This document shows, one piece after another, positions 5,796 to 62,909 of a stretch of 64,000 nt of DNA. This DNA comes from an uncultured Actinomycetes bacterium (lineage in GTDB: Bacteria > Actinomycetota > UBA4738 > HRBIN12), in contig CAVZMG010000002.1 in assembly GCA_963776425.1 (NCBI GenBank), forward strand, positions 1,122,732 through 1,186,731, in the 5' to 3' direction. The notes under the pieces were generated by a model that did not search any database, was not told where the DNA came from, and saw only the letters and a list, made by a program, of their open reading frames with translations. A program made the translations under genes and the position numbers. Positions within the stretch are counted from its first letter, which is position 1. The number at the start of each line of letters is the position of its first letter.

Positions 5796-6266
5796 TCAGA
5801 ACTGGTTGTAGAACGCGCCGCCCGCGATACGTTCGCGCTCTTCGGCCGAGACCTCGACGTTGGCCGGGGTCAGCAGGTAGACCCGGTTCGCGACGAGCTC
5901 GATCTTGCCATCCAAGCCGTACACGAGACCCGACGCGAAATCGACGAGTCGCCGAGCGATCGTATCGTCGGTGCTCTGCAGGTTCATGATCACGGCAGTG
6001 CCTTCCTTGAAGCGGTCGGCCACCTCCCGCGCTTCGTTGAACCGCTTGGGCTCGGATTTGTAGATCGCGGAGGATGCGGAGGCCATCCGCGGCGATGCGA
6101 TCGTCCGGACCACCCCTTCGGTCTCGGAGGGAACCTCGCGAACCGCCTGAGGCTTCATTCGGCGAACCGGCGCCGGCTCCGCCTCGGGCATCTCGTCGAC
6201 GAAGTCGTCCTCGTCCTCGACCAACCCGAGGTAGTTGAGCGTCTTCTTCCACACGCCGGCCATCAC
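5796..6266 (-). CDS. sepF: cell division protein SepF
   Basis: C-terminal SepF core (GTAVIMNLQSTDDTIARRLVDFASGLVYGLDGKIELVANRVYLLTP). Confidence 0.85.
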   Translation of the reverse strand: MMAGVWKKTLNYLGLVEDEDDFVDEMPEAEPAPVRRMKPQAVREVPSETEGVVRTIASPRMASASSAIYKSEPKRFNEAREVADRFKEGTAVIMNLQSTDDTIARRLVDFASGLVYGLDGKIELVANRVYLLTPANVEVSAEERERIAGGAFYNQF

Positions 6267-6278
6267 TTCCTCCCTGAC

Positions 6279-6965
6279 TTACGGCACCCGGGGACCGAAC
6301 AGCGCCGTCCCGACGCGGACCATGGTAGCGCCTTCCTCGACCGCGACCTCGTAATCCAACGACATCCCCATGGACAATTCCAGCACCTCAGGGTGGTCGT
6401 GCGCGACCCGGTCGCGCAGCTCCCGGAGCTTCGCGAACGTCGGTCGGGCGTCCTGTGACGTGCCCGCCACAGGGGGGATCGTCATCAACCCGATGAGCCG
6501 CAGCCCGTCGAGCACGGCAACGTGGTCGGTCAGGGCCGAGATCTCCGACGGCGCCGCGCCTGCACGTTCACCCGTGAAATCGACCTCGATCATGGCGTCG
6601 AGCGTCCTCCCAGCTTCGGCCGCCCGGCGCGCGAGGCGCTCCGTCGGCCGGCCGCCGGCGACGGTCTGGACCACATCCGCCAGCGCGGCCACGTGATGGA
6701 CGCTGTTCGTCTGGAGCGTGCCGATGAAATGCCACCGGGCGCCGGGAACCGACGGGCGCTTCGTTCGCAACTCGCGTACGTAGTTCTCCCCCACGTCCGT
6801 GAGTCCGGCTCGGACCGCCGCCGCCACCATCTCAGCGGGGACCGACTTGGCCGCGCCAACGATCCGGACCCCGGCCGGGTCGCGTCCCACGCGCTCGCAC
6901 GCACCCGCGATCCGTTCACGAACCTCGTCAAGGTTCGCTCGGAGCGATCCCTCGGACCAACGCAT
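6279..6965 (-). CDS. YggS-family PLP homeostasis protein (alanine-racemase-fold)
   Basis: Conserved YggS motifs (WHFIGTLQTNSVHHV, LSMGMSLDYEVAVEEGATMVRVGTALFG); start trimmed to MRWSEGSLRANL. Confidence 0.85.
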   Translation of the reverse strand: MRWSEGSLRANLDEVRERIAGACERVGRDPAGVRIVGAAKSVPAEMVAAAVRAGLTDVGENYVRELRTKRPSVPGARWHFIGTLQTNSVHHVAALADVVQTVAGGRPTERLARRAAEAGRTLDAMIEVDFTGERAGAAPSEISALTDHVAVLDGLRLIGLMTIPPVAGTSQDARPTFAKLRELRDRVAHDHPEVLELSMGMSLDYEVAVEEGATMVRVGTALFGPRVP

Positions 6966-7103: not shown

Positions 7104-8270
7104 TCAGTTCTTGAGGAAGTCGGGGATGTCCAGATCCTCCTCAGCATCGAAGGACACGCCCGACGGCTCATGGTCGGCGCCGGACGTGAAGACGTCGGCG
7201 TCCTCGTCCGAGTCGTCGGTCAGGATCGACGGCAAAGGCTCGTCTCGACCGCTCCCGCCGGTCGGCTCCTCGAGCAGCCGGGAGAGCCGACTCTCGAAGC
7301 GGCTCGTGTCTGCGGAGACCGCGAGCTTGTCGAACCCGGCGGCGACGACCGTGACCCGCACCTCTTCGCCGAGCGCGTCGTCCACGACAGCTCCGAAGAT
7401 GATGTTCGCGTCGGGGTGCGCGACCTTGGTGATGTGATCGGCCGCCGCGTTAACCTCATGCAGCGACAGATCCGTCGGGCCGGCGATCGAGAGCAAGACG
7501 CCCTTCGCGCCGTCGATCGACGACTCGAGCAGCGGTGAGGAGATGGCGGCCTTCGCCGCGTCGACCGCCCGGTTCTCCCCCGTCCCATGCCCGATCCCCA
7601 TCAGGGCCGAACCCGCGCCCGTCATCACCGACTTCACATCCGCGAAGTCGAGGTTGATGAGACCGGGAGTGGTGATGAGCGACGTGATGCCGTCCACTCC
7701 TTGGAAGAGGACCTGGTCTGCCATGCGGAACGCATCCACCATGGGGGTCGTCGGATCGGACACCTGGAGGAGACGATCGTTGGGGACCACGATCAACGTA
7801 TCGACGGCCTTCTTCAGTTCGGTGATCCCGAGGTCCGCTTGGGTTGCCCGTTTGCGACCTTCGAACCCGAACGGTCGCGTGACGACGCCGATGGTCAAGG
7901 CGCCCAGACCTCTCGCAACCTCGGCGACGACCGGGGCTCCGCCCGTGCCGGTGCCACCACCCTCGCCCGCGGTGATGAACACCATATCGGCGCCCTTGAG
8001 GATCTCTTCGATCTCATCGCCGTGCTCGTGCGCGGCGGAGCGGCCGACTTCTGGGTCCGAACCCGCTCCGAGACCGCGGGTCGTCTCTCGTCCGATGTCG
8101 AGTTTCACCTCTGCGTCGGACATCAACAGGGTCTGAGCGTCGGTATTGACGGCGATGAACTCGACGCCCCGGAGGCCTGCCTCGATCATCCGGTTCACCG
8201 CGTTCACGCCGCCGCCGCCGATCCCGATGACCTTGATCACGGCGAGGTAGTTCTGGGGAGCATCCATCAT
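7104..8270 (-). CDS. ftsZ: cell division GTPase FtsZ
   Basis: GGGTGTG tubulin signature, full-length FtsZ; GGAGGA SD 6 nt upstream of ATG. Confidence 0.97.
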
Positions 8271-8469
8271 CGCTATCCTCCGCGCGGCGGGCTTGCGGCC
8301 CGTTCGCTACCTGGGGAAACGCCGTACCTCACAACCGAACCATAACCGTAACGTTGAGCTTGATTGTTATATCTACCTCAACTGGAGAGGGCAAACCTAC
8401 TAAGAAAGGCCAGGTCCGTCAAGCGTCGCCGGGACCTCGATTCGTCCTCTCGATGACAGCGAACGGGCT
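8271..8469 (-). promoter_or_regulatory. ftsQ-ftsZ intergenic region with AT-rich segment (probable ftsZ promoters/leader)
   Basis: 199-bp gap, locally AT-rich (accataaccgtaacgttgagcttgattgttatatctacc) in a 70% GC genome; SD before ftsZ. Confidence 0.35.
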
Positions 8470-9207
8470 TCAGGAGAACGTCGCGGTGGGGGCGGAAGGC
8501 ACCCCGACATCTGCGGACCGCAGGGGGGTCCCCTGCGCCCCTGCCCAACGCAGCAACGCGCCCAGCGCCTCCGCCTTGTCGGTCAGCTCATCGGGCGTTC
8601 CGTACGAGATCTGGGCTCCGGAGCGCAGGTCGACCTGCAACTCTCCGTCGACGAGGATCGCGACCTGCGCCACCTGGCGCTGCAAGACGGTGGGCATCGC
8701 GGCGAGCGCTCGCGCCGCTCCGCTCACCAAGGGGGCGCTGGGTTCCGGCCCGGACGGGTCTGCATCCACGATCCGAGGATATGCAGTGGCCGGGTTCGCC
8801 ACATCCAGGAGCGACCCATCCTCGGCCACCAACCGCAGGACGCCGTTCAACGTCGTCACGGCGACCGCGGTGTGTTCGCGGACGTTCACGTCCAGCGTGG
8901 TGGGCAGCTCCTTGGTGATGGTCGCCGACGCGACCCAGGGGTCCGCCTCCAGCCGCCGCTCCGCCGCCTGAGCGTCCAACGTCACGACGTTCGTGCTCGA
9001 TCCGATCCCCGCGATCCGCAACGCCTCCGCTCGGCTGAGGTGATCGAGTCCGTGGACCCGGATCGTCTCGGCGTGGAGGAGCGGGCCCTGGATCGCGGCG
9101 AGCGCGATGGACCCGAGGACCACGACCGCGATGAATAGGAACGCCGGGATCCGCCATCGCCGATGCTCCGCCGGAGTGGACAGATGGAGGTCACCGGCGG
9201 GCGTCAT
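8470..9207 (-). CDS. ftsQ: cell division protein FtsQ/DivIB (POTRA domain)
   Basis: N-terminal TM helix, POTRA-like region, position between murB and ftsZ. Confidence 0.7.
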   Translation of the reverse strand: MTPAGDLHLSTPAEHRRWRIPAFLFIAVVVLGSIALAAIQGPLLHAETIRVHGLDHLSRAEALRIAGIGSSTNVVTLDAQAAERRLEADPWVASATITKELPTTLDVNVREHTAVAVTTLNGVLRLVAEDGSLLDVANPATAYPRIVDADPSGPEPSAPLVSGAARALAAMPTVLQRQVAQVAILVDGELQVDLRSGAQISYGTPDELTDKAEALGALLRWAGAQGTPLRSADVGVPSAPTATFS

Positions 9208-17668: not shown

Positions 17669-19179
17669 GTCCGCCTCCCCAGGGCCTCGAGCTCCTCGCG
17701 CGCCACGACACGATCGTCGAACGGGATCGTCCGATCTCGGAACTCTTGGACCGGCTCGTGTCCCTTCCCGGCGATCACGACCACGTCACCCGATCGGGCA
17801 CCCTCGACCGCGAGCCGGATCGCTTTGCGCCGGTCCGGCTCCACGACGTGCTCGCCACCACCCTCCCGGGCGCCGGATCCGATCTCTTCGATGATCGCGA
17901 GCGGGTCTTCCGACCGAGGGTTGTCCGTGGTGATGATCGTGAGGTCGGCGTTGGCCGTGGCCGCGGCTCCCATGGCGGGACGCTTCGAACGGTCGCGATC
18001 CCCCCCACAGCCGAACACGAGGATGAGGCGACCGGACGCCAGCGGGCGGGCCGCGCGCAGCACGCTCCGGATGCTATCCGGCGTGTGGGCGTAGTCCACC
18101 ACCACCAGGGATCCTTGTCCGGCTTCGATCGGCTCCATCCGCCCGGGGACAGCCCGCAACCCGCCGATCCCTGTGCGGATCGGATCGTCGGAGATGTCCA
18201 GCACGCGAGCGGCGGCCACAGCCGCCAGGACGTTCGACGCGTTGAACCGGCCCCGGAGCGGCGACCGGATCCGAAGGCCGTCCAGGGTGAGCGAGAGGCC
18301 GTTCGCGTCCACACGCACGTCCGTGGCTCGTACGTCCGCATCGCGATCGAGCGCGAACGTCGTGAGCGGGATCGTGGTGTCCAGGAGCTTCTCGGCCCAC
18401 GGATCGTCGAGGTTCACGACGGCGTGTCGGGCGTGAGTCGCCGAGAAGAGTCGCGCCTTGGCTTCGAAGTAGGACTCCATCGTCGCGTGGTAGTCCAGAT
18501 GATCCTGCGACAGGTTCGTGAACACCGCGACGTCGAGCGTCATCCCGTCGGTGCGGTGTTGCGTGAGCGCATGTGACGAGATCTCCAACGCCACGGCCTC
18601 CACACCCCGATCACGCATCGTGGCGAGATGTCGTTGGAGATCTGGCGCCTCCGGCGTCGTTCGCGCGAGCGGCAGCGGGTCGTCGCCGATCCGGATCCCG
18701 GTTGTCCCCACCACGCCCGTGGACATCCCCGCCGCGCGGGCGATCGCCTCCACGAGGTAGGTCACGGTCGTCTTGCCGTTCGTGCCGGTGACGCCGACGG
18801 TCTTGAAGGACCGAGCCGGCTCGCCGAACGCTTCGGCGGCGATCGGGCCCATCGCCTCCCGGACCGACGGGACACGGACCTGAGGCACCGCGAGATCGAG
18901 CCATCGGTCCACGACGAGCGCGAGCGCTCCCGCGTCGATCGCGTCGGGCGCGAACCGATGCCCATCGACGCGGTCGCCCGGTACGCAGAAGAACAACGCG
19001 CCGGCGGCCACCTCACGGGAGTCGAACGCGACGTCGTCGATCAGGACGTCACCGCCGGCCGGACGGATCTCGGCGCCCGGGACGACCGACGCCAACCGTT
19101 CGAGGGGAACCGGGGGGAAGGCGGGTGTCACCGCTCCCGAGCTTACCCGCGCCCCTGATCGCGGGTGCCCTGCCGTCAT
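17665..19179 (-). CDS. murE: UDP-N-acetylmuramoyl-L-alanyl-D-glutamate--2,6-diaminopimelate ligase
   Basis: Mur ligase motifs (VGVTGTNGKTTVTYL, DNPRSEDP). Confidence 0.9.
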   Translation of the reverse strand: MTAGHPRSGARVSSGAVTPAFPPVPLERLASVVPGAEIRPAGGDVLIDDVAFDSREVAAGALFFCVPGDRVDGHRFAPDAIDAGALALVVDRWLDLAVPQVRVPSVREAMGPIAAEAFGEPARSFKTVGVTGTNGKTTVTYLVEAIARAAGMSTGVVGTTGIRIGDDPLPLARTTPEAPDLQRHLATMRDRGVEAVALEISSHALTQHRTDGMTLDVAVFTNLSQDHLDYHATMESYFEAKARLFSATHARHAVVNLDDPWAEKLLDTTIPLTTFALDRDADVRATDVRVDANGLSLTLDGLRIRSPLRGRFNASNVLAAVAAARVLDISDDPIRTGIGGLRAVPGRMEPIEAGQGSLVVVDYAHTPDSIRSVLRAARPLASGRLILVFGCGGDRDRSKRPAMGAAATANADLTIITTDNPRSEDPLAIIEEIGSGAREGGGEHVVEPDRRKAIRLAVEGARSGDVVVIAGKGHEPVQEFRDRTIPFDDRVVAREELEALGRRT

Positions 19180-20888
19180 GGCAGCCCGAGGGCGTGGGGT
19201 GGCAGCGGAACCGGGGGGGCGGTGGGGATCCCCAGCCGCTGGATGGCATAGCGCGCGATCTGCTGGAACAGTGGGGCCGCGGCCACACCGCCATACACGG
19301 TTGCCGGTTCGTCCATGATCGCGGCGACGACGACCCGCGGACGTCCGGCCGGCAAGAACCCGATGAACGATGCGACGTACCGGTCAGCGTAGTAGCCGCC
19401 AGCGGGGTCCGGCTTCAGGGCCGTCCCGGTCTTGCCGGCCACCTGGTAGCCGGAGATCTGCGCGCTCGTGCCCGTCCCGTCGGCGACCACGTACGCGAGC
19501 ATCTGGGTCAGGATCGACGCCGTCTGGGGGGCGATCACTCGGCTCGTGGGTGACTGGGCTGCGGGCGTGAACGTCCCCGCATCATCGACGGTCCCGCTCA
19601 CCAGCCGGGGCTGCACCCACACGCCCCCGTTCGCGATCGTCGCGTAGACCGATGCCATCTGGATCGGCGTGACGCTGATCCCCTGTCCGTACGCGATCGT
19701 CGCGAGGCTCGCATCGCTCCAGTCCGACAGGGCCGGGACGATGCCGTCCGATTCACCGGGGAACCCCAGTCCGCTCGTCCGGCCGAATCCGAAACGGTTG
19801 ATGTACGAGGCGAGCGTCGTCTTCCCGATGACGCCGGCTACCTTCGCGATCCCGATGTTGCTCGACTCCGCGATGATGTCGCCGAGCGTCATCGTCTCAA
19901 CCGGGTGCGGGTGCGAGTCGTGGATCGTGTACTGGTCGACCTGCATCGACTCTGGAACCTGGAACCGCTGGGTGGTCGACACGTCGCCCGACTCGATCGC
20001 CGCGGCCGCCGTGATGATCTTGTTGACCGAGCCGGGTTCGAACGCGTCGGTGACGGCCCGGTTGCGCCACCGGTCGGGGTTCGTCTGGGCGAATCGGTTC
20101 GGGTCGAAGTAGGGGAAGCTCGCCATGGCGTAGATGTCCCCCGTCGACGGATCCATCACGATCACGGTGCCTGCCTTTGCCCCGTTGTCAGCGATCGCCT
20201 TCGCGAGCGCCTCCTGGGCCTGGAACTGGATCTCGCGGTCGATCGTCGTTCGCAGGTTCACACCGTCGACCGGATCCCTCGTGGCGTTGAGCCCCTGCGC
20301 GATCGGCTGGCCGTCCGGCGAGACCTCGACGGTCCGCTCCCCTGGCGTCCCTGCGAGCTCCGGGTCGTACTGCTCCTCGAGCCCGGCGAGGCCCGACCCG
20401 TCGACCCCGACGAACCCAAGCACCTGCGGCGCAAGCGATCCGGCCGGGTAGTACCGCTTCGAGACTGGGAGGAACCCGATCCCCGGGAGGTTGAGCGCCT
20501 CGATCCGTTGCGCGACATCGAGATCCACCTGCCGGGCCACGTACGCGAACGTCCCCACCCCCTCGAGTGCGGGTCGCACGAGCTTGGGCTTCTCGCCGAG
20601 GTCAGTCGCGATCTGTGCCGCCTCACCTTCGGGGTCGGTGACGAGCGACGGATCGGCGTAGATATCGCGAGCGTCGAGCGTGATCGCCAGGGGCACCCCA
20701 TGTCGATCGAGGATGTCGCCGCGTGACGCGGGCAGCACCGTCCGTCGCACCCGCTGGTCGAACCCGATCGCCGCCAGGTTGCTCCGGTCGCTCACCTGCA
20801 GGGTCGCCAGGCGCACCGCGATGGCTCCGAACGCCACCAACAACAGCGCGAGGAGCGCGATCAACCGCCGGCCAGTCCGACGCCTCAC
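19176..20888 (-). CDS. ftsI: penicillin-binding protein, transpeptidase (FtsI/PBP3-like)
   Basis: N-terminal TM helix, dimerisation domain, transpeptidase motifs STxK (ASFPYF.. SVNK), SxN, KTGT; GTG start overlaps ftsL stop. Confidence 0.85.
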   Translation of the reverse strand: MRRRTGRRLIALLALLLVAFGAIAVRLATLQVSDRSNLAAIGFDQRVRRTVLPASRGDILDRHGVPLAITLDARDIYADPSLVTDPEGEAAQIATDLGEKPKLVRPALEGVGTFAYVARQVDLDVAQRIEALNLPGIGFLPVSKRYYPAGSLAPQVLGFVGVDGSGLAGLEEQYDPELAGTPGERTVEVSPDGQPIAQGLNATRDPVDGVNLRTTIDREIQFQAQEALAKAIADNGAKAGTVIVMDPSTGDIYAMASFPYFDPNRFAQTNPDRWRNRAVTDAFEPGSVNKIITAAAAIESGDVSTTQRFQVPESMQVDQYTIHDSHPHPVETMTLGDIIAESSNIGIAKVAGVIGKTTLASYINRFGFGRTSGLGFPGESDGIVPALSDWSDASLATIAYGQGISVTPIQMASVYATIANGGVWVQPRLVSGTVDDAGTFTPAAQSPTSRVIAPQTASILTQMLAYVVADGTGTSAQISGYQVAGKTGTALKPDPAGGYYADRYVASFIGFLPAGRPRVVVAAIMDEPATVYGGVAAAPLFQQIARYAIQRLGIPTAPPVPLPPHALGLP

Positions 20889-21301
20889 GGCGCACCCCCA
20901 GACATCGAGCCGGGGACGTGCAGGATCACCACGTTCTGCGGGAGGACCATCTGATACCGAGCCGCCCACTCCGCGATCCGTTCCGGCGACGAAAGCGTCG
21001 CGGCTTCGGTGTTCAACACGGCATGTCGCTCCTGCAGATCGGCCACCTGCGACTGCGTCTCGTGGACCGCGAACGCCGTCTGCGCGAACATCGCGTTCAG
21101 CGCGACGACGCCCACGACCAGCAGCACGACGATCGTGGTGGCGAAGATCAGGAACGTGGGGTGGAACCCGCGGCGCGCCCGCCGATGACGCTGGGGAGGG
21201 GTTGCGGTCCGCGGGCGCACCGCGGTCGTCCGCGCGGGAGTCGCGGGACGCTTCGGAGCCGGAGCCGGGGCGCGGATGACGTGGGGAGCGGGGACGCTCA
21301 C
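20885..21301 (-). CDS. ftsL: FtsL-like cell division protein
   Basis: Single TM helix followed by coiled-coil (ETQSQVADLQERHAVLNTEAATL), position between rsmH and ftsI. Confidence 0.6.
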   Translation of the reverse strand: MSVPAPHVIRAPAPAPKRPATPARTTAVRPRTATPPQRHRRARRGFHPTFLIFATTIVVLLVVGVVALNAMFAQTAFAVHETQSQVADLQERHAVLNTEAATLSSPERIAEWAARYQMVLPQNVVILHVPGSMSGGAP

Positions 21302-42505: not shown

Positions 42506-43570
42506 TCACGCGCCGGTAGCGCCCTCCGACGCCCACGCACCGAACGCGCCCCAGAACGGATCCAGCCCAGGGTGTTCCAGCGGACGCTCAACGTCACCAG
42601 CGACCAGGACGCGGCCGGCCGAACGATCCGTCACCTCACCGACCACGGCCGCGTCGATCCCCTCCTGCGCCAACGCTTGCACGTACGCGAGCGCGCGCTC
42701 CGGTACCACGGTCGCGAGCAGGCTGCCCTCGGAGATCGAGATGTAGGGATCGATCCCGACGTGGTCGCACACCGCCCGGACCTCGGGACGGAGCGGGATC
42801 TTGTCGAGCTCGACCCGCATCCCGACATCCGATGCCACCGCCACCTCGAGCAGCCCGCCGAGCACGCCCCCTTCCGTCGCGTCGTGCATCGATGTCACCC
42901 CGTGGTCGCGCAGACCGAACGCGGCCGCGATGCGCGCCTCCGGGACCACGGTCATCTGTTCGAACAAAGCGTCCGCGTGTCGCACGACGTCTTCACCGAC
43001 ACCGGCGGCCAGCCGGTCGGGGAACGTGGCGGCGAACAGGGCCGTCGCCTCGATCGCCGCCCCCTTCGTGACGACGATCAGGTCGCCGGGCCGGGCCATG
43101 GTGGGGGTCACGTAGGCGTCGGCAGGCCCCGCCGCGAGGCAGGTCGCTCCACCGACCATCGGCCAATCGCACCCGTCGTACCGCGCGGTGTGTCCGGTGA
43201 CGATGGCGACGCCGAGGTCCGTGCAGGCACGGGAGAACGCGTCCCACAGAGCCGTCAGCTCCAGATCACTGATCGAAGGAGGGAGGTTGAGGTCGACGGT
43301 CATCCATCGGAGCGGCAGGCCGCTCGTCGCCGCGTCGGACGCCAAGATGTGCACGGCGAACCAGGCGGCGCGTTCCCAACCGTAGGCCGGGACGATGAAG
43401 ACCGGATCGGTGGTGAGCGCCATCGCCACCCCGTCCGCCACTCGGACCACGCCGACGTCGACGCCGTGTTGAGGTCCGACCAGCACGTCGGCGTCGACCG
43501 CTCCCAGTCGGCGCAGGATCACCCGCTCGAACAGTTCGGGCGTGGCCTTGCCGGTTCGCTGCTCGCTCAC
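42506..43570 (-). CDS. AIR-synthase-related (PurM-like) protein, ThiL/HypE superfamily
   Basis: PurM N/C domains (GPQHGVDVGVVRV...DGVAMALTTDP ; DATEGGVLGGLLE); GTG start overlaps thiE stop. Confidence 0.55.
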   Translation of the reverse strand: MSEQRTGKATPELFERVILRRLGAVDADVLVGPQHGVDVGVVRVADGVAMALTTDPVFIVPAYGWERAAWFAVHILASDAATSGLPLRWMTVDLNLPPSISDLELTALWDAFSRACTDLGVAIVTGHTARYDGCDWPMVGGATCLAAGPADAYVTPTMARPGDLIVVTKGAAIEATALFAATFPDRLAAGVGEDVVRHADALFEQMTVVPEARIAAAFGLRDHGVTSMHDATEGGVLGGLLEVAVASDVGMRVELDKIPLRPEVRAVCDHVGIDPYISISEGSLLATVVPERALAYVQALAQEGIDAAVVGEVTDRSAGRVLVAGDVERPLEHPGLDPFWGAFGAWASEGATGA

Positions 43571-44226
43571 GAGACGAGCCCTTCCCGCGCGCGGAAGCGA
43601 TCGACGACGTCCACGAGGGCGGCCGTGGCGGCCACGGGATCGGGGGCGGAGGCGACGGCCGAGATCACGGCGACGCCCGCCGCACCCGCCTCCAGGACGA
43701 GTTCGGCGTTCGTGGCGAAGATGCCGCCGATGCCGACCACCGGCAACGAGGTCATACCGGCGAGCGAGCGGAGGCCCTCCAGACCGTGCGGGAGCGCGTC
43801 GGGTTTCGTCGGCGTCGACCACACGGTGACCCCCAGGTAGTCCGCGCCGGCCCGTTCGGCGGCTCGGACCTCCTCAGGAGCGCCGGTGCTGATCCCCAGG
43901 ACCCGATCCGGACCCAGCCGGCGCCGGGCTCGGTCCATATCGTCGCCTTGCCCCAGATGGACACCGTCGGCTCCGCTCGCGACCGCCACGTCGAGTCGGT
44001 CGTTCACCACGAACAACACGCCCGCCGCCCGGCACGCAGGGGCGAGCTCGGCCGCGATCGGCAACAGGTCGTCATCCGCAAGCTCGGGGGCGCGGAGCTG
44101 GACCGCGGTGGCACCGCCGCTGATCGCAGCCCGCAGGACGGCCGCGTGATCCCGACCGGGGATGGACGCGTTCGAGGACACGACATACACCTGAAGCCGC
44201 CGTCGGTCGTCCAGCATGCGCTCCAT
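43567..44226 (-). CDS. thiE: thiamine-phosphate synthase
   Basis: TMP-TENI family motifs (VQLRAPEL, VNDRLDVA, GADGVHLGQ, LPVVGIGGI). Confidence 0.85.
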   Translation of the reverse strand: MERMLDDRRRLQVYVVSSNASIPGRDHAAVLRAAISGGATAVQLRAPELADDDLLPIAAELAPACRAAGVLFVVNDRLDVAVASGADGVHLGQGDDMDRARRRLGPDRVLGISTGAPEEVRAAERAGADYLGVTVWSTPTKPDALPHGLEGLRSLAGMTSLPVVGIGGIFATNAELVLEAGAAGVAVISAVASAPDPVAATAALVDVVDRFRAREGLVS

Positions 44227-51408: not shown

Positions 51409-51585
51409 TCAGCCCTCGTCGCCCTCGTCGTCCTCGGCCTCGTCTCCCTCGGCTTCGAGCTCCTCGGCGCGGCGTTTGAGCACCTCGTACCACTCGGACT
51501 CGTACGCATCGACGTCGGCGACCGACTTCGGGGTCGAGCCGTCGTCCTCGCGCTCTTTCTCGGTGTCTTCCGTGGGTGTCTCCAT
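51409..51585 (-). CDS. small acidic protein (58 aa from METPTEDTEKERE...), hypothetical
   Basis: ORF with very acidic C-terminus (EELEAEGDEAEDDEGDEG); no clear SD. Confidence 0.25.
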   Translation of the reverse strand: METPTEDTEKEREDDGSTPKSVADVDAYESEWYEVLKRRAEELEAEGDEAEDDEGDEG

Positions 51586-53465: not shown

Positions 53466-54782
53466 TCAGCGCCCCAGGACCGGCGCCAGGACGTCCGTGA
53501 GCTGCGGCGAGTCGGGCAACACGTCGAGGTCGTAGCGGACGCGAACGGCCGGCTTCGAGATCGTGATGACCCGACGCAGGTCGATCGGCGTTCCGATCAC
53601 GACGAGGTCCACCTCCGCCGCGTCGATGATCTTCTCCATCTCGGCGAGCTGCCCGTCGGAGTAACCCATCGCGGGAAGGACAGGTCCCACGTCGTACTTG
53701 CGGAACGTCTCGTCGATCGTCCCGACGGCCCAGGGACGCGGGTCGACGATCTCCGCCGCACCGTTCAGCCGCGCCGCCACGACGCCGGCCCCGAACTTCA
53801 TCTCGCCGTGCGTGAGGGTGGGGCCGTCCTCGACGACCAGGACCCGCTTGCCGGCGATCGCACCCGGGTCGTCGACCGTGACGCGACTGTTCGCCTTCAC
53901 GACCGTCGCCCGCGGGTTCACGGTACGGATCGTGTCCTCGAGTTCGCCGATCTGCTCGGTGGACGCGGAGTCCACCTTGTTGATCACGATCACGTCGGCC
54001 ATGCGGATGTTCGTCTCACCGGGGAAGTAGGTCATCTCGTGGCCGGCCCGCAGCGGATCGGCGACCACGATGTTCACGGTCGGCCGGTAGAACGACAGGT
54101 CGTTGTTCCCGCCGTCCCAGAGCAGGACGTCGCACTCCTCCTGTGCCTGGGCGAGGATGTCCGCGTAGTCAACGCCGGCGTAGATGATCGTCCCGGACGT
54201 GATGTGCGGCTCGTACTCCTCGCGCTCCTCGATCGTCGTGTCGTAGCGGTCGAGGTCCTCGAGCGTCGCGTAGCGCTGCACGCGCTGCGCGTTCAAGTCG
54301 CCGTACGGCATCGGATGGCGGACCGCCACGACCCGCTTCCCGGCGTCCTTCAGGACCCCGGCGATCGCGCGAGTCGTCTGGCTCTTCCCCGAGCCGGTGC
54401 GCACGGCGCACACCGAGACCACCGGAACCTTGGCGTCGAGCATGGTCGCGTCGGCGCCCAGGAGCAGGAAGTTCGCGCCCGCGGCCATGGCCTCGCTCGC
54501 CTTGTGCATCACGTAGACATGGGAAACGTCTGAGTACGCGAACACGACGTCATCGACATGGAGCTCCTCGATCAGGTGCGTCAGCTCGGACTCATCGTGG
54601 ATCTTGATCCCGTTCGGGTAGTTCGGTCCGGCGAGCTCCGCCGGATACGTCCGGTCGTTGATGAACGGGATCTGGGTCGCCGTGAACGCCACGACCTCGG
54701 TGTCGGGGTCATCGCGGTACACGGTGTTGAAGTTGTGGAAGTCGCGACCGGCGGCCCCCATGATCAGGACACGACGCTTCAT
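53466..54782 (-). CDS. P-loop NTPase of the cyclic-2,3-diphosphoglycerate-synthetase-like family (putative)
   Basis: 438 aa; N-terminal MGAAGRDFHNFN Rossmann-like region, P-loop CAVRTGSGKSQTTR, EEREEYEPH block; family call from memory, unverified. Confidence 0.45.
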   Translation of the reverse strand: MKRRVLIMGAAGRDFHNFNTVYRDDPDTEVVAFTATQIPFINDRTYPAELAGPNYPNGIKIHDESELTHLIEELHVDDVVFAYSDVSHVYVMHKASEAMAAGANFLLLGADATMLDAKVPVVSVCAVRTGSGKSQTTRAIAGVLKDAGKRVVAVRHPMPYGDLNAQRVQRYATLEDLDRYDTTIEEREEYEPHITSGTIIYAGVDYADILAQAQEECDVLLWDGGNNDLSFYRPTVNIVVADPLRAGHEMTYFPGETNIRMADVIVINKVDSASTEQIGELEDTIRTVNPRATVVKANSRVTVDDPGAIAGKRVLVVEDGPTLTHGEMKFGAGVVAARLNGAAEIVDPRPWAVGTIDETFRKYDVGPVLPAMGYSDGQLAEMEKIIDAAEVDLVVIGTPIDLRRVITISKPAVRVRYDLDVLPDSPQLTDVLAPVLGR

Positions 54783-55083: not shown

Positions 55084-55650
55084 TCAGCCCGGCTCGAGGT
55101 CCCCGGGCACGTCGACGTCGAACAGCGTCCGCCGTTCAGGGTCGAGCGCGGTCCAGGCCCGCTCGTCGATCACGACGGGTTCGAGCGTTCCCAGCATCGA
55201 GCGGAGGCGACGACCCCCGACATGCAGCAACGTGTGGGTCGCGTCGAGCGCCTCGAGCATCCGCAACACACAGGGAAGGGGCCGGAACCGATCGGCGTCC
55301 GCGAGCGCGACCGCAGCCGCCTCCTCGGTCGCGGCGACGCGCAGCATCTCCTCGAGGACGCGGGGCTGGAGGTCCGGCATGTCTCCGCCGGCGACGACCA
55401 CGAGTTCTGTTCGGCAGGCCATGAGCCCGGCATACAGGCCCGCGAGCGGGCCTTCCCCTTCGGTGCTATCGCGGGCGAACCGGACGTCGAGCCCTCCGGG
55501 GAGCTCCGGCTCGGCCCCTTGGGGTGAGAGCACCACGACGATCTCTTCGCAGACCTCGGCGAGTCGCGCCACCGCGCCGTGGAGCAGCGGAGCGCCCCGA
55601 TAGGTCGACGAGAGCTTGTCCCCGCCGAACCGGGTCGACCGTCCCCCCGC
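55084..55650 (-). CDS. mobA: molybdenum cofactor guanylyltransferase MobA (start codon unclear)
   Basis: GIVLAGGRSTRFGGDKL nucleotide-binding motif and MobA C-terminal region. No ATG/GTG/TTG between the upstream stop and the GTG at 55572, which lies downstream of the conserved motif. Confidence 0.65.
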   Translation of the reverse strand, partial: AGGRSTRFGGDKLSSTYRGAPLLHGAVARLAEVCEEIVVVLSPQGAEPELPGGLDVRFARDSTEGEGPLAGLYAGLMACRTELVVVAGGDMPDLQPRVLEEMLRVAATEEAAAVALADADRFRPLPCVLRMLEALDATHTLLHVGGRRLRSMLGTLEPVVIDERAWTALDPERRTLFDVDVPGDLEPG

Positions 55651-55693: not shown

Positions 55694-56667
55694 CTAGTCT
55701 CGCTTCCGTTTCCGGGCGGCCGGGTCCTCGCCCTTGCGCGCCTGGACGAACGCGAACCCGAATCGGCCCTTGATGCAGAGATGGCCGTTCGTGACGTCGT
55801 TGTCCCACGGGGAGGTCACCTTGACGATCTCGTTGTCCTGGACGTGCAGCTCGAGCTCGCATCCCACGCCGCAATAGGGGCAGATCGTCTCAACGACCGT
55901 CTGCGCTTCCTCGTCCCATGAGCCATCCTCACGCTTGTCGTGCTCGCTCGTGAACATCAATGCGCCGGTCGGACACACCCCGATGCAGTTCCCGCAGTAG
56001 ACGCAGGCGGACTCGTTCAGCGGGACCGCGAACTCGGTCGAGATCCGAGCGTCGAACCCGCGACCGGCCACGGCGATCGCGAACGTGTTCTGTGCGTCGA
56101 CACCACAGGCTTCGACGCACTTGTAGCAGAGGATGCAACGCGAGTAGTCACGCACGTAGAGTTCGTTGTCGATCTTCACCGGCTGCGCGACGGACTCGGC
56201 GATCGTGGGGTCCTCCGGATCGTGATGATGCCCGGCCCATCGTTCGTCACGCTCCCCCGCGGGGAGGGATCCCATCCGCGCACCGAAACGATCGGGGTCC
56301 GTCCCGTACTCCCCCATCCACCGATGGACGTCGGCGCCGGTGAGCTCCGTGTCGACGCTCGACGCCAGGAACTCCATCACGAGCTTGCGTGAGTGCTTGA
56401 CGCGGTCCGTCTCCGTCTTCACTACCATGCCGTCCTCAGCCGGACGGCTGCACGCAGGGACGAGCGTGCGCGCACCCTCGACCTCGACGACGCAGACGCG
56501 ACAGGCGTTCACGGGCGTGAGGTTGTCGGCGAAACACAGCGTGGGGGTGTCGATGCCCTGGGCGCGGCATGCATCGAGGATCGTCGACCCGTCCGCCACC
56601 CGAACGGCCTGCCCGTCGACCTCGATGTCGAGCAGCCGCCGGGGTGGATCGAGCGGCACGGCCTGGC

Positions 56668-56671
<4 letters not shown>
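55694..56671 (-). CDS. formate dehydrogenase alpha, N-terminal Fe-S module (NuoG-like 2Fe-2S + 4Fe-4S clusters) as separate polypeptide
   Basis: 2Fe-2S ferredoxin N-terminus (CRVCVVEV), 4Fe-4S motifs (CILCYKCVEAC, CVYCGNCIGVCP), then CPYCGVGC...LCIKGRFGFAFV (the N-terminal cluster of FdhF-type Mo enzymes) before a stop. Confidence 0.8.
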
Positions 56672-58557
<1,886 letters not shown>

Positions 58558-58567
58558 CGCAGCTCCC

Positions 58568-60508
58568 TCACTCGGCGTCTCGCTCCCCCGCGGGCACGGA
58601 CACCCGCGGCAGCCGGTCGATCCGCACCGCCGTCGCCTTGAACTCGGCGGTCCCAGATTTCGGGTCGTTCGCCTCGATCGTCAGCCGGTTCGTCTCGACC
58701 TGGTCGGGGAAGTGCAGCGTCATGAACGTCAGCCCCGGCCGCAGCCCGCTGTCGAGATGGACCGGCGCCTCGACCGATCCGCGGCGAGAGGTGACGCGCA
58801 CCCGCTCTCCCTCGACGACGCCGAGCGCCGCCGCGTCCTCCGGCGAGATCTCGATCGACTCGGGCCGACGGAGCGGCGACGTATACCCACCCGTCTGGAC
58901 GCCGGTGTTGTACGAGTCGAGCCGTCGGCCCGTCGTCAGCCGCAATGGGAACTCGGCATCGAGCGCGTCGACCGGCGGGTCGTCGATCACCACGCTGAAC
59001 GGCGCCTTCGTTCCTTGCGTCTGGGGATCGTCGAACGCCCATAGCCGTTCGTGGAGGAAGAGCGTGCCCGGATGGGACTCGTCGGGGCACGGCCACTGGA
59101 TCCCACCGAGCGCCTCCAGGCGTTCGTACGACATCCCCGCGTGCATCGGTGAGAGCGAGCGGAGCTCGTCCCATGCCCCATGGGCCGTGACCTCTCCCCA
59201 GTCGCGTCCGAGCCGCTTCGCCAGCTGCGCGATGATCCAGATGTCGTCCTTCGCGTTCCCGGGTGGATCGAGCGCCTTGCGGACCCGTTGCACCCGCCGC
59301 TCGCTGTTCGTCACGGTACCCTCGGCCTCCGCCCACGCGGCGGACGCCGGGAACACCACGTCGGCGAGCTCCGCGGTCTTCGTCATGAAGATGTCCTGCA
59401 CGATCAGACAATCGAGGTTCTCGAGCAGCGGCGTAGCGTGCGTCGCGTCGGCCTCGGAGCTGGCCGGGTTCTCGCCGATCACGTAGACCGCCCGGATGTC
59501 CCCGCGCTCCATCGCGTGGAACATCTGGGTGAGGTGCCAGCCGTACTTCGGCGTGATCGGGACACCCCAGGCCCGCTCGAACCGCTCGCGCGCGGCCGCG
59601 TCCTGCTCGATGTCCTGGAACCCCGGGAGCTTGTTGGGGATCGCGCCCATGTCGCCGCCGCCCTGCACGTTGTTCTGGCCGCGGAGCGGGTTCACGCCGC
59701 TGCCGTAGACCCCGACATGACCGGTCAGCAGGCTGAGGTTGATCAGGGCGAGCACGTTGTCGACGCCGTTGTGATGCTCGGTGATGCCGAGCGTCCAGCA
59801 GATCACCGCGCGGTCGGCCTTCGCATACGCGTGCGCGACCTCCTGGATGATCTCGGCCGGTACGCCCGTCACTTCCTCGCCGCGCTCGAGGGTCCAGTCC
59901 ATCACCGAGTCGCGATAGGCGGCGAACCCGGTCGTCGCACCTTCGATGAACGTGTGGTGCTGCAGGTCGTTCACGATGATCTCGCGCGCCATCGTGTTGG
60001 AGAGCGCGATGTCGGTGCCGACGTCGATCCCGAGCCACAGGTCGCCCCACTCCGCGGACTCCGTCCGACGTGGATCCACCACGATCATCTTCGCCCCGTT
60101 GTGGATGCCCTTCAGGACGTGGTGGAAGAAGATCGGATGCGCCGCGCGCGCGTTCGATCCCCACAACAGGACGAGATCGGTGTGCTCGATCTCCTCGTAT
60201 GAGCTTGTCCCGCCACCTGCTCCGAACACGGTCGCCAGACCGACGACGGAAGGAGCGTGTCAGGTGCGGTTGCAGCTGTCGATGTTGTTGCTGCGCAAGA
60301 CCTGGCGAGCGAACTTCTGTGCGACGAAGTTCATCTCGTTCGTGGCCTTGGAGCAACTGAACAGGCCGACCCCGTTGCCGCCGTTCCGCTCGGTGGCGGC
60401 GCGCAGCCCGTCCGCGGCCCGATCAAGGGCCTCGTCCCAGGTGGCGATGCGCAACACGCCGTTCTCGCGGACCATCGGCTCGGTGAGTCGGGTGAGCCCG
60501 TTCGTCAT
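58568..60508 (-). CDS. fdhA: formate dehydrogenase catalytic (Mo-bisPGD) subunit, selenoprotein; in-frame UGA (60260-60262) aligns with active-site Sec
   Basis: ATG with AAGGAGA SD. SNNIDSCNRT-[TGA]-HAPSVVGLATVFGAGGGTSSYEE aligns with E. coli FdhF CARV-U-HGPSVAGL. Two six-frame ORFs (60260..61003 and 58568..60229) share one frame and are separated only by that TGA. Confidence 0.8.
60215..60257 (-). ncRNA. candidate bacterial SECIS element downstream of the fdhA UGA
   Basis: mRNA UGA-CACGCUCCUUCCGUCGUCGGUCUGGCGACCGUG: hairpin CGGUC-UGGC-GACCG with GGUCUG motif (E. coli fdhF SECIS apex is GGUC/GGUCUG). Confidence 0.4.
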
Positions 60509-60537
60509 CGGCTCTCCTTTCGACCGAACGTCGGTTC

Positions 60538-61545
60538 GTGCGCGATTGTACGCGCGCTCCATCCTCGAGCCGTGCCGATGCGCCTCGGTGGACGTGTCCG
60601 GGCTGGTCAAGGCGCTCAGCCAAGGTCCATCATGTGCGGGTGGAACAGATCCCGATCGGCGGTGCGGCCGATCCCTTCGACAACGTCGTCGCCTTGCCCG
60701 GTGGGCGGAGCGATCCGGACCGGGAGATCCCCGAGCCCGACGCGGAGCAGGTGGTGCCGGCCGAACCAGCCCTCGGACCGCTGATCGAAGAAGCCGCACG
60801 CATCGTGGCGGGATCCATCTCCGCCGTGACCGAGCTCGTCGTCTCGGCCCTGCAGGACCTCTCCGTTCGATCCGAAGCAGGGGAAGCCGATGAGGAGTCT
60901 TTCGACGGCGAACCGATGCCGAGGGATCCATCCCCGATCGGTGTAGCGGCCGGCGCGGCCGCCGGGCTGACGATGCAGCTGTCGGAGGTCGCCATCCGGG
61001 CAACCACCTCGTTCGCCGGAACGGCCGGACCGATGATGTCGTGGATCACGAGCCCCGCGGTGGTGCGCCGCGGAGTGGCAGACCTCAGGTCACGAGCCGA
61101 AGGATTGAACGATCGTTGGTCACAGGAGCGACCGGCCAGCGAAGACGCGGCCGCCTCGTTCGCGAGACGGCTCCTCCCGGAGCTCACGAGTGCCGTCCTC
61201 GACCAACTGGATCTGACCCAGATCGCGATCGACCATCTCGATATCGATCGGATCGTCGACTCGATCGATCTCGACGCGATCGTGGAACGGGTTGACATCG
61301 ATGCTGTCATCCATCGCCTCGACCTGGCCGGCATCGCCACCGAAGTCATCGGTGAGATCGACCTGCCCGAGTTGATCCGCGAGTCGACCGGCGCGGTCAC
61401 GTCGGAGACCGTTCGAACCGTGCGCCTCGGAAGCGCTGAGCTCGATCGCTTGCTCGGCCGCGTGGTCGACCGGTTGTTGCGCCGCGGAGCCGATGGGGAT
61501 GGCGGATCCGATGGCGCTCGGGATGACGAGGAGGCGCGATCGTGA
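60538..61545 (+). CDS. hypothetical protein with five about 9-residue hDhDxIhxx repeats (LDIDRIVDS/IDLDAIVER/VDIDAVIHR/LDLAGIATE); start uncertain (N-terminus overlaps fdhA promoter region)
   Basis: Protein-like composition from about 60640 onward; repeats visible at DNA level as recurring ATCGA(T/C) units around 61200-61380; translationally coupled (ATGA) to downstream RDD gene. Confidence 0.4.
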   Translation: MRDCTRAPSSSRADAPRWTCPGWSRRSAKVHHVRVEQIPIGGAADPFDNVVALPGGRSDPDREIPEPDAEQVVPAEPALGPLIEEAARIVAGSISAVTELVVSALQDLSVRSEAGEADEESFDGEPMPRDPSPIGVAAGAAAGLTMQLSEVAIRATTSFAGTAGPMMSWITSPAVVRRGVADLRSRAEGLNDRWSQERPASEDAAASFARRLLPELTSAVLDQLDLTQIAIDHLDIDRIVDSIDLDAIVERVDIDAVIHRLDLAGIATEVIGEIDLPELIRESTGAVTSETVRTVRLGSAELDRLLGRVVDRLLRRGADGDGGSDGARDDEEARS

Positions 61546-62174
61546 AGACCGAGCCCCGGCCGGTTGGAGGCGGGCACCGCGTGGACGTCGTTCCGGCAGA
61601 GGCGCGAAGCCTGCAGGGCCATCGTGCGGGTCTCGTGAGTCGCGCGATCGCGAACGTGATCGACTTCGCCTTCGTGTATGCGGCGGTCTTGGCTGCGTAC
61701 CTCGCCATCACCTTCGCGCTCTTCGTGTGGCGCGGATCCCGGTTCACGTTCCCCACGCCCTCGTTCGACCGCGTGATCCTCCTCGCGACGCTCTTCCAGA
61801 TCGCGTACTTCGCGACCTCATGGGCGACGTCGGGCCGAACGTACGGGGACCGGTTGATGGGGTTGCGTGTGCTCGACCGGAATCGGAAGACGCTTCGGAT
61901 CGGTCCTGCCCTGGCGCGAGGCGTCTTGTGCGCACTGTTCCCGGTGGGTTTGCTCTGGGTGGGGATCAGCCGAGGGAACCGCTCGGTGCAGGATCTGATC
62001 ATGCGCACGTCGGTGATCTACGACTGGGCGCACCGGGCAGCCATCGGCGAGCTCGGACCGGACGGTGTCGCCTCAGGTGATCCGCTCAGCTCCGGTGTAG
62101 ACGTTCAGCCGTCCGTCACGGACGAACCCGACGATCGTCATCCCGAAGCGCTCCCCCGCGTCGACGGCGAGTGA
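61542..62174 (+). CDS. RDD-family membrane protein
   Basis: RDD-type topology and motif (RAIANVIDFAF... GRTYGDRLMGLRV); C-terminal 100 nt overlap convergently with fdhD. Confidence 0.6.
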   Translation: MKTEPRPVGGGHRVDVVPAEARSLQGHRAGLVSRAIANVIDFAFVYAAVLAAYLAITFALFVWRGSRFTFPTPSFDRVILLATLFQIAYFATSWATSGRTYGDRLMGLRVLDRNRKTLRIGPALARGVLCALFPVGLLWVGISRGNRSVQDLIMRTSVIYDWAHRAAIGELGPDGVASGDPLSSGVDVQPSVTDEPDDRHPEALPRVDGE

Positions 62175-62909
62175 CGTCGGCGCACTCACCGCGCTCACGA
62201 TCGGGATCCCCGCGACCGCCGCTTTCTGGACGATCTCGAACGACAGCCTTCCGCTGACCTGCAGGATGCGGTCGACTAGCGGGATGCTCCCGGCGAGTAC
62301 TTGCTCGCCGATCACCTTGTCGACGGCGTTGTGACGGCCGACGTCTTCGCGAACCGAGATGAGTTCCCCGTCGGCGGTGAACAGTCCGGCGGCGTGCAGC
62401 CCGCCGGTGCGCTCGAACACGCGCTGATGCGACCGTAGCCGGTCGGGCAACGTTACGAGCGTCTCGGCCGACACCGTGGGACCCGGATTGACCGCGGCGC
62501 AGCGGACCTCGATGTCGTCGAGGGCAGCCTTCCCGCAGATACCGCAGGAGGACGTCGCGTAGAAGTTCCGGCGCACCCGTTCCGCATCGAACGGCCGAGC
62601 CACCCGCACCGACACCACGTTGTAGCGCTGATCCTCGCCGGGCAGGTTGTCGCAGTACGCGACCCGACCGACGTCGTCGGGCGCGATCAACCCCTCCGTG
62701 AACAGGAATCCAACGGCGAGCTCGAAATCGCCACCAGGCGTCCGCATCGTGACGGCCACCGAGCGGAGCTCCTGGTCGGGACCGGCGACCCGGATCTCCA
62801 TCGGCTCCTCGGTCGCGAGCGTGTCGGGGCGATCGCCGGACACCCCGTCATGCATCGCGATGACCCGAACGGGGGTCGAGCTCCTCCGGAGCGGTTCCGA
62901 CACGGACAT
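62073..62909 (-). CDS. fdhD: formate dehydrogenase accessory sulfurtransferase FdhD
   Basis: FdhD motifs (SSCGICGK catalytic Cys loop, GRHNAVDKVIG). Confidence 0.85.
   Translation of the reverse strand: MSVSEPLRRSSTPVRVIAMHDGVSGDRPDTLATEEPMEIRVAGPDQELRSVAVTMRTPGGDFELAVGFLFTEGLIAPDDVGRVAYCDNLPGEDQRYNVVSVRVARPFDAERVRRNFYATSSCGICGKAALDDIEVRCAAVNPGPTVSAETLVTLPDRLRSHQRVFERTGGLHAAGLFTADGELISVREDVGRHNAVDKVIGEQVLAGSIPLVDRILQVSGRLSFEIVQKAAVAGIPIVSAVSAPTSLAVDAGERFGMTIVGFVRDGRLNVYTGAERIT

Follow-up and report, generated by a model that had tools for sequence, protein, structure and literature searches.

The stretch of DNA analysed here, the window, comprises 64,000 nucleotides (nt) of contig CAVZMG010000002.1 from an uncultured Actinomycetes bacterium, and the gene in question is fdhA on its minus strand, which encodes the predicted catalytic subunit of a formate dehydrogenase (FDH) and carries a single in-frame TGA (60262..60260, codon 83) between its ATG at 60508 and its stop at 58570..58568 (Table 1). 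An original prediction, made without database searches, had held that two minus-strand open reading frames (ORFs), 60260..61003 and 58568..60229, share one frame across this TGA, that the TGA encodes selenocysteine (Sec) and that a hairpin with a GGUCUG apex 3' of it is a bacterial Sec insertion sequence (SECIS). The shared frame is confirmed, the two listed ORFs being the two halves of fdhA. The Pfam domain Molybdopterin (residues 7-432 of FdhA) spans the TGA and is followed by Molydop_binding (residues 522-626), and the phase of the G+C content at third codon positions (GC3) is unbroken on both sides of the TGA. Because one Molybdopterin domain and the same GC3 phase cross the TGA, the linkage of the two halves is not due to chance.

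The gene starts at ATG 60508, and the proteins of relatives align from residue 1. The open frame extends upstream from 60508 to 61003, and the coding status of this extension was rejected on the grounds that its translation is Arg/Pro-rich, that the GC3 phase changes near 60500, that a ribosome-binding site precedes ATG 60508 and that the relatives align from residue 1; the extension, which has no Pfam match, is an artefact of the high-GC genome (68.8% GC). TGA terminates fdhA itself as an ordinary stop and likewise fdhB, the stop of which overlaps the next start (ATGA), and therefore the genetic code is not reassigned. A scan of the window for other TGA-split ORFs, which is not exhaustive since its strict composition filters passed over even the TGA of fdhA, returned a second pair of well-coding ORFs in one frame across a single TGA at 51411..51409 on the minus strand; this TGA was rejected as a Sec codon because it terminates, in the ordinary way, a small acidic ORF that immediately precedes a gene for phosphofructokinase.

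Table 1. Coordinates in the window of fdhA, its recoding signals and the neighbouring genes. Mo/W-bisPGD, molybdenum or tungsten bis(pyranopterin guanine dinucleotide); FMN, flavin mononucleotide; bp, base pairs; aa, amino acids.
Feature	Position	Strand	Description or basis
fdhA	58568..60508	-	Mo/W-bisPGD catalytic subunit of formate dehydrogenase, 646 codons, predicted Sec codon 83
UGA predicted to be read as Sec (codon 83)	60260..60262	-	In frame; aligned with FdhF Sec140
Ribosome-binding site AAAGGAGAG	60512..60520	-	Upstream of ATG 60508; direct sequence reading
Predicted SECIS element	60217..60257	-	RNAalifold consensus of 81 sequences
SECIS lower helix	60257..60252 paired with 60223..60217, A60218 bulged	-	RNAalifold
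SECIS upper helix, 6 bp	GUCGUC 60247..60242 paired with GGCGAC 60236..60231	-	RNAalifold
SECIS apical loop	GGUCU 60241..60237	-	RNAalifold
fdhB	56668..58557	-	NuoE-NuoF fusion, diaphorase module ([2Fe-2S], FMN/NADH site, [4Fe-4S])
fdhC	55694..56671	-	Fe-S subunit resembling the N-terminal part of NuoG or FdsA, 325 aa
mobA-like nucleotidyltransferase gene	55084..55572	-	Downstream of fdhC; Pfam NTP_transf_3, 3.6e-19
fdhD	62073..62909	-	Accessory sulfurtransferase for the FDH cofactor; Pfam FdhD-NarQ, 2.7e-68
335-aa ORF and RDD-family protein gene	60538..61545, 61542..62174	+	Between fdhD and fdhA

Codon 83 falls, as predicted, on the active-site Sec of Escherichia coli FdhF. In a BLASTP alignment of FdhA with residues 61-686 of FdhF (taken from NC_000913.3; 39% identity over 634 columns), U83, H84 and R276 coincide with the catalytic triad Sec140, His141 and Arg333, placing the UGA next to the catalytic His and giving FdhA the complete set of Sec/Cys ligand, adjacent His and conserved Arg. 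The flanking peptide SNNIDSCNRT-U-HAPSVVGLATVFGAGGG aligns with NNVDCCARV-U-HGPSVAGL of FdhF, and the best solved-structure matches of FdhA are FDHs, all aligned through the same CxRxCH motif. Cys is found at the position equivalent to U83 in FdhF of T. kivui and in one orthologue (protein P0005, locus L084), a 646-aa protein with 74% identity that has a TGC codon and reads NRTCHAPS. The in-frame UGA thus occupies a position at which homologues have an active-site Sec or Cys.

A species-level scan with one genome per species yielded at least 584 relatives, the best 80 of which (71-92% protein identity) were examined; nearly all are metagenome-assembled genomes (MAGs) labelled Actinomycetota, Actinomycetes, Gaiellales or Thermoleophilia, and many come from soil surveys. 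TGA is present at codon 83 of fdhA in 80/80 of these genomes. Since the 82 residues upstream of the TGA are conserved while synonymous sites vary, the N-terminal part is translated and under selection. The expectation that annotation pipelines split such genes is borne out: the best 120 homologues (71-91% identity) include 118 fragments, 532-569 aa in length, and the five sequences fetched all start 6-13 residues past the TGA, at VVGLATVFG or VFGAGGG. The closest homologue in the protein collection, which does not contain the proteins of the window, is 91% identical to FdhA. One full-length gene call, P0111 (European Nucleotide Archive, 644 aa), is 71% identical to the window FdhA, with residues ~20-45 and 70-115 unrelated in sequence as if translated in another frame across the Sec region, and probably reflects an assembly indel or a true pseudogene.

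The hairpin 3' of the UGA is likewise present. RNAalifold, applied to 81 sequences each consisting of 3 nt before the TGA, the TGA and 57 nt after it, returned a consensus structure in which an internal loop separates the lower helix from the upper helix. The upper helix begins 12 nt and the GGUCU(G) loop 18 nt on from the UGA, i.e. a stem-loop with a G-containing apical loop lies just 3' of the UGA and at the right distance for a SECIS. Pairing is maintained in 98.7% of cells, compared with 92.1% in column shuffles and 25-73% when the 3' partners are slid, and none of 500 shuffles attains the observed pairing or covariation score. The pair +17/+29, formed by the third bases of Val codon +5 and Ala codon +9, is C:G in 48 and G:C in 33 of the 81 genomes and is broken in none, and at least 12 independent double switches are needed to account for this distribution on a tree inferred by neighbour joining from the downstream protein. 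In the lower helix, the pair +8/+41 (third bases of Ala +2 and Gly +13) occurs as U:A, A:U and G:U, with some mismatches.

Three codons of the hairpin are frozen at their synonymous sites. Codons +6 to +8 (GTC GGT CTG), which form part of the 5' arm and the apical loop, have zero third-position entropy in the 81 genomes, compared with 0.8-2.0 bits in other invariant four-fold codons (Gly, Ala, Val) nearby, and the GGT codon of the apical loop is retained despite a GC3 of ~0.9. The apical GGUC lies in codons +7 and +8, the same codons as in the SECIS of E. coli fdhF. In the Cys orthologue the loop codons are GGC CTC, the peptide after them is relaxed (LDTAFHAG) and the score of the SECIS structure is +0.1 versus -13.8 kcal/mol; by these features the hairpin has decayed in this orthologue. 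This comparative evidence, comprising covariation and frozen codons, is new here and is unusually clean.

FdhA is only one part of a split enzyme. It lacks an N-terminal [4Fe-4S] domain, and that domain is found at the C-terminus of FdhC, two genes downstream. FdhC contains Fer2_4 ([2Fe-2S]), two Fer4 (2x [4Fe-4S]) and, at residues 258-310, Molybdop_Fe4S4 (Pfam); its residues 260-310 align with residues 4-53 of FdhF, including the CxxCxxxC...C motif. Similarly, in the TIGR01591 Fdh-alpha profile FdhA covers positions 52-672 and positions 1-51 match FdhC residues 262-312, and the Fdh-alpha domain set is complete only across the two polypeptides. FdhB (629 aa) has the Pfam domains 2Fe-2S_thioredx, Complex1_51K, SLBB and NADH_4Fe-4S as well as matches to the NCBIfam nuoF and nuoE families, and in this way supplies the NuoE-like and NuoF-like module of an FdsABG/FDH3-type complex; the NuoG-N-terminal-like Fe-S chain of such a complex is present as the separate FdhC protein. 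Because FdhA is devoid of the N-terminal [4Fe-4S] domain encoded two genes downstream, the predicted enzyme is an NAD-linked complex of the FdsABG/FDH3 type rather than an FdhF-type monomer. Judged from its domain content, this complex is most likely a soluble formate:NAD+ oxidoreductase.

Each part of the original prediction that could be examined held up. Combining these data, we suggest that the TGA of fdhA is a Sec codon in the catalytic subunit of a cytoplasmic NAD+-linked Mo/W FDH, and we assign this interpretation a probability of roughly 0.93. A number of observations weigh against it. In agreement with the original prediction, no selA, selB, selD or tRNA-Sec was detected within the 64-kilobase (kb) window (tblastn with E. 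coli SelA, SelB and SelD; ARAGORN; Rfam); ARAGORN detected no tRNA of any kind in the window, and a whole-window Rfam scan at gathering thresholds detected no SECIS or tRNA-Sec family. In the related loci, each with up to 10 kb of flank, sel genes are found near the operon in 1/80 only, tRNA-Sec is found in 0/80 by ARAGORN and in 0/6 also by Rfam, and among the 120 SelB matches listed, all of which are close to the Gaiellales query, no SelB contig was paired with an FDH-bearing contig. With respect to the hairpin, there is no Rfam family match between 60100 and 60400 at E <= 10, the matches to Sernc350 and speF having been dismissed as chance; the 66 nt after the UGA folded alone are no more stable than shuffled sequences (z = -0.07); and the minimum-energy fold of the single sequence selects a shifted hairpin (CGGUC/GACCG), which we reject in view of the covarying pair +17/+29, a part of the hairpin that resembles that of E. 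coli. The support for the SECIS structure is comparative and not thermodynamic. Finally, FdhA scores 654.4 bits against TIGR01591, below the cut-off of 666.25 for the whole profile; the score lies just under the cut-off because 51 profile positions reside on the other polypeptide, FdhC.

The single related locus with sel genes belongs to a Gaiellales MAG (L077), in which selA and selB lie 6-9 kb downstream of the FDH operon on the opposite strand (18244..21035, minus strand); the two are adjacent, and their matches overlap by one base at 19734. No tRNA-Sec was found in this 22-kb locus, and tblastn searches of the window and all loci, with SelA, SelB and SelD of E. coli and then with SelA and SelB of this locus, gave matches in this locus alone, apart from one weak match in the window (see below). 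Among the matches listed, the lineage of this MAG has many SelB proteins that contain the SelB wing domain. In another locus (L076, 4950..5044, minus strand) ARAGORN called a 95-nt 'tRNA-Thr (cgt)', the length of which is typical of tRNA-Sec; this candidate was discarded, having the wrong anticodon and no Rfam tRNA match at the gathering threshold, and is probably a false positive. In the window itself, the ORF at 42506..43822 (minus strand) encodes a protein of the AIR-synthase family that scores 53 bits against the SelD cut-off of 125 and is nearer to ThiL or HypE than to SelD, with all three scores below the NCBIfam cut-offs. As SelD it was rejected, its tblastn match being weak and ThiL and HypE matching better. 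It adjoins a probable thiamine-phosphate synthase gene (43567..44226, assigned by eye from the sequence). We infer that selABCD are located elsewhere in the source genome.

The alternative that survives best is that the UGA is read through without Sec, either by near-cognate insertion of Cys or Trp or through a lineage-wide reassignment, with the hairpin functioning as a general stimulator. In its favour, no Sec machinery was found for the source genome in the 64-kb window, yet UGA ends both fdhA and fdhB, which speaks against a genome-wide reassignment, and the hairpin matches the SelB-binding SECIS of E. coli fdhF in its position and in its apical GGUC. Moreover, one relative carries selA and selB close to the operon, its lineage is rich in SelB, and formate removal in a cultured actinobacterium with an FDH of the same architecture requires selenium (PMC7176365). 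We therefore consider read-through without Sec improbable.

Even less probable, in our judgement, is that the TGA is a real stop and that the locus represents a pseudogene or encodes an 82-residue peptide and a protein of ~553 residues initiated at an internal GTG. Gene callers annotate the gene in this manner in almost every relative and the window contains no Sec machinery, but a disabling stop would not persist at one codon in 80/80 genomes that are 8-29% diverged, nor would both sides of the TGA be expected to be under purifying selection in one frame. The TGA, in addition, lies exactly at the catalytic Sec/Cys position and is followed by a hairpin with compensatory changes and frozen synonymous sites, and the C-terminal fragment would be without the metal ligand and the beginning of the domain that binds the pterin. 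The least probable explanation of all is that a Cys codon, TGC or TGT, was turned into TGA by faulty sequencing or assembly. The existence of the Cys orthologue and the apparent frame-shift of P0111 hereabouts might be invoked for it, but the same TGA is found in 80 independent assemblies from many projects and the SECIS features are missing from the true Cys orthologue.

Given that a Sec codon accounts best for the data, we suggest the following scheme for the synthesis and function of the enzyme. The mRNA just 3' of the UGA would fold into the SECIS, its lower and upper helices separated by the internal loop and the upper one, of 6 bp, capped by the GGUCU loop, and SelB-GTP in complex with Sec-tRNA(Sec) would bind this element and deliver Sec at the UGA in place of termination. 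Actual selenium insertion and its dependence on SelB are steps that we infer. The resulting full-length FdhA of 646 residues would have Sec83 as a ligand of Mo/W-bisPGD, beside His84 and Arg276. FdhA would comprise the pterin-binding domains alone, and FdhC would provide the proximal [4Fe-4S] cluster in trans together with a NuoG-like Fe-S chain. In this scheme electrons would pass from Mo/W-Sec via the trans [4Fe-4S] cluster and the clusters of FdhC to the FMN of FdhB and on to NAD+. FdhD and the MobA-like protein would mature the cofactor.

The organization of the surrounding genes is in keeping with such a complex. Where a relative has enough flank, fdhA is nearly always followed by fdhB (62 of 80 loci); the mobA-like gene follows fdhC in most relatives and fdhD adjoins the operon in most of them; the order fdhD-fdhA-fdhB-fdhC-mobA is kept across relatives, the Cys form included. 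FdhD scores 313.8 bits against NCBIfam NF001943 (cut-off 269). Proteins of the MobA type generate the guanine dinucleotide form of the molybdenum cofactor. In the window, fdhD and fdhA are separated by a gene pair on the plus strand, of which the 335-aa ORF has no Pfam match; the pair is found with 31-61% identity in ~18/80 related loci, fdhD abuts fdhA in the rest, and by this distribution the pair looks like an insertion into the FDH operon. Downstream of mobA, a gene at 53466..54782 (minus strand) encodes a 438-aa protein that has no Pfam family except for a weak CobW/P-loop match, that is 73-95% identical across relatives, sometimes exceeding FdhA in this respect, and that is syntenic with the FDH operon in most loci, the Cys-type locus included. 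In the Cys-type locus the operon lies beside genes for formate-tetrahydrofolate ligase, the glycine-cleavage T protein and 5-formyltetrahydrofolate cyclo-ligase (7204..8874 and 5800..6891), and these neighbours suggest a link to one-carbon metabolism.

The window fdhA is a textbook case of Sec and SECIS in a lineage in which such a gene is systematically mis-annotated; it involves no new mechanism, and our knowledge of Sec recoding and of FDHs is unchanged by it. The consequences lie first in annotation: nearly every database entry for the gene from this clade is a fragment of ~555 aa, and thus the catalytic subunit, its active-site residue and the selenium dependence of the organism are missed. 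Furthermore, a covariation-backed SECIS from a high-GC lineage without an Rfam match could seed a covariance model. The data also point to a wide spread of the Sec form of the split FDH3-type enzyme among soil Actinomycetota that are uncultured. A far bolder idea, which we regard as rather unlikely, is that a large and mostly uncultured group of soil Actinomycetota keeps Sec almost universally in a split NAD-linked FDH with its [4Fe-4S] domain in trans. If this were true and the organisms were aerobic, a need for selenium in formate oxidation would characterize the group in general, and the supply of selenium in soil could limit its formate turnover. The split between the Fe4S4 and pterin-binding domains might reflect the order of assembly around Sec insertion and cofactor loading.

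The alpha subunit of FDH is the most widespread bacterial selenoprotein and was found in 822 organisms (Peng et al. 2016, PMC5029168). With E. coli FdhF, the window FdhA shares its catalytic domains at the level of identity given above and a SECIS that starts at the same distance from the UGA. The two systems differ in that FdhF, a single polypeptide, includes the N-terminal [4Fe-4S] domain and feeds hydrogenase 3, whereas here FdhC carries this domain and a NuoEF diaphorase is the partner; the SECIS, too, has a perfect 6-bp upper stem and a 5-nt loop here, whereas in the E. coli fold one U in the 5' strand of the upper stem is unpaired.

The FdsABG enzymes contain the same redox modules, i.e. 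NuoE-like and NuoF-like parts, the NuoG-N-terminal-like Fe-S chain and the Mo/W-bisPGD domain, and FdhA matches FdsABG-type enzymes in the PDB with E-values of 1e-122 to 1e-125, the systems compared being those of Rhodobacter capsulatus (6tg9), Cupriavidus necator and Methylorubrum extorquens (FoDH1, 7e5z/7vw6). In FdsABG, however, the Fe-S chain is fused to the catalytic domain in an alpha subunit of ~950-990 aa. The window operon divides the alpha subunit between the Fe4S4 and pterin-binding domains, has a permuted gene order with the catalytic subunit first and the Fe-S subunit last, encodes NuoE and NuoF as a fusion and has Sec as the predicted metal ligand. In the Cupriavidus and Methylorubrum enzymes, Sec is not conserved at the active site (PMC7176365 supplement).

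A closer counterpart is FDH3 of Actinomycetospora chiangmaiensis DSM 45062, a cytoplasmic NAD+-dependent Sec-containing FDH (Rohwerder et al. 2020, PMC7176365). Its FdhA3 (640 aa, U80) shows homology to FdsA-type alpha subunits in their metallopterin-binding part alone, FdhB3 (614 aa) combines NuoE and NuoF, and FdhC3 (316 aa), a separate Fe-S subunit, is a homologue of the N-terminal domain of those alpha subunits; a SECIS was predicted by bSECISearch, and FdhD is included in the protein table of that paper (PMC7176365). Formate removal by A. chiangmaiensis is selenium-dependent, and all three FDH3 subunits are present in the proteome of cultured cells (PMC7176365). The window operon has the same three-subunit split, with U83 for U80, 629 aa for 614 aa and 325 aa for 316 aa, a likeness based on published lengths and domain descriptions and not on a direct alignment with WP_084681743.1. 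The hosts differ: A. chiangmaiensis belongs to the Pseudonocardiaceae, whereas the window comes from soil Actinomycetota that are uncultured and whose more distant relatives include Gaiellales and Thermoleophilia.

FDHs with Sec are well documented in actinobacteria, and mycobacteria provide a further parallel. Their FDH (fdhA-fdoG, FDH-O/N type) has an in-frame UGA followed by a SECIS and is annotated as two genes, selC-selA-selB are located elsewhere in the genome, and the FDH-O-type enzyme occurs in ~40% of the mycobacterial genomes surveyed (PMC13449736). The mycobacterial protein, at ~1060 aa, belongs to a different subfamily, FDH-O/FDH-N, of which the FDH-N type enzymes are membrane-associated; the NCBIfam model formate_DH_Act gives the window FdhA only 174 bits against a cut-off of 1400. 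Despite this difference, both are actinobacterial FDHs in which an in-frame UGA is followed by a SECIS, the one in the window being predicted, and in both a single catalytic subunit has been annotated as two genes.

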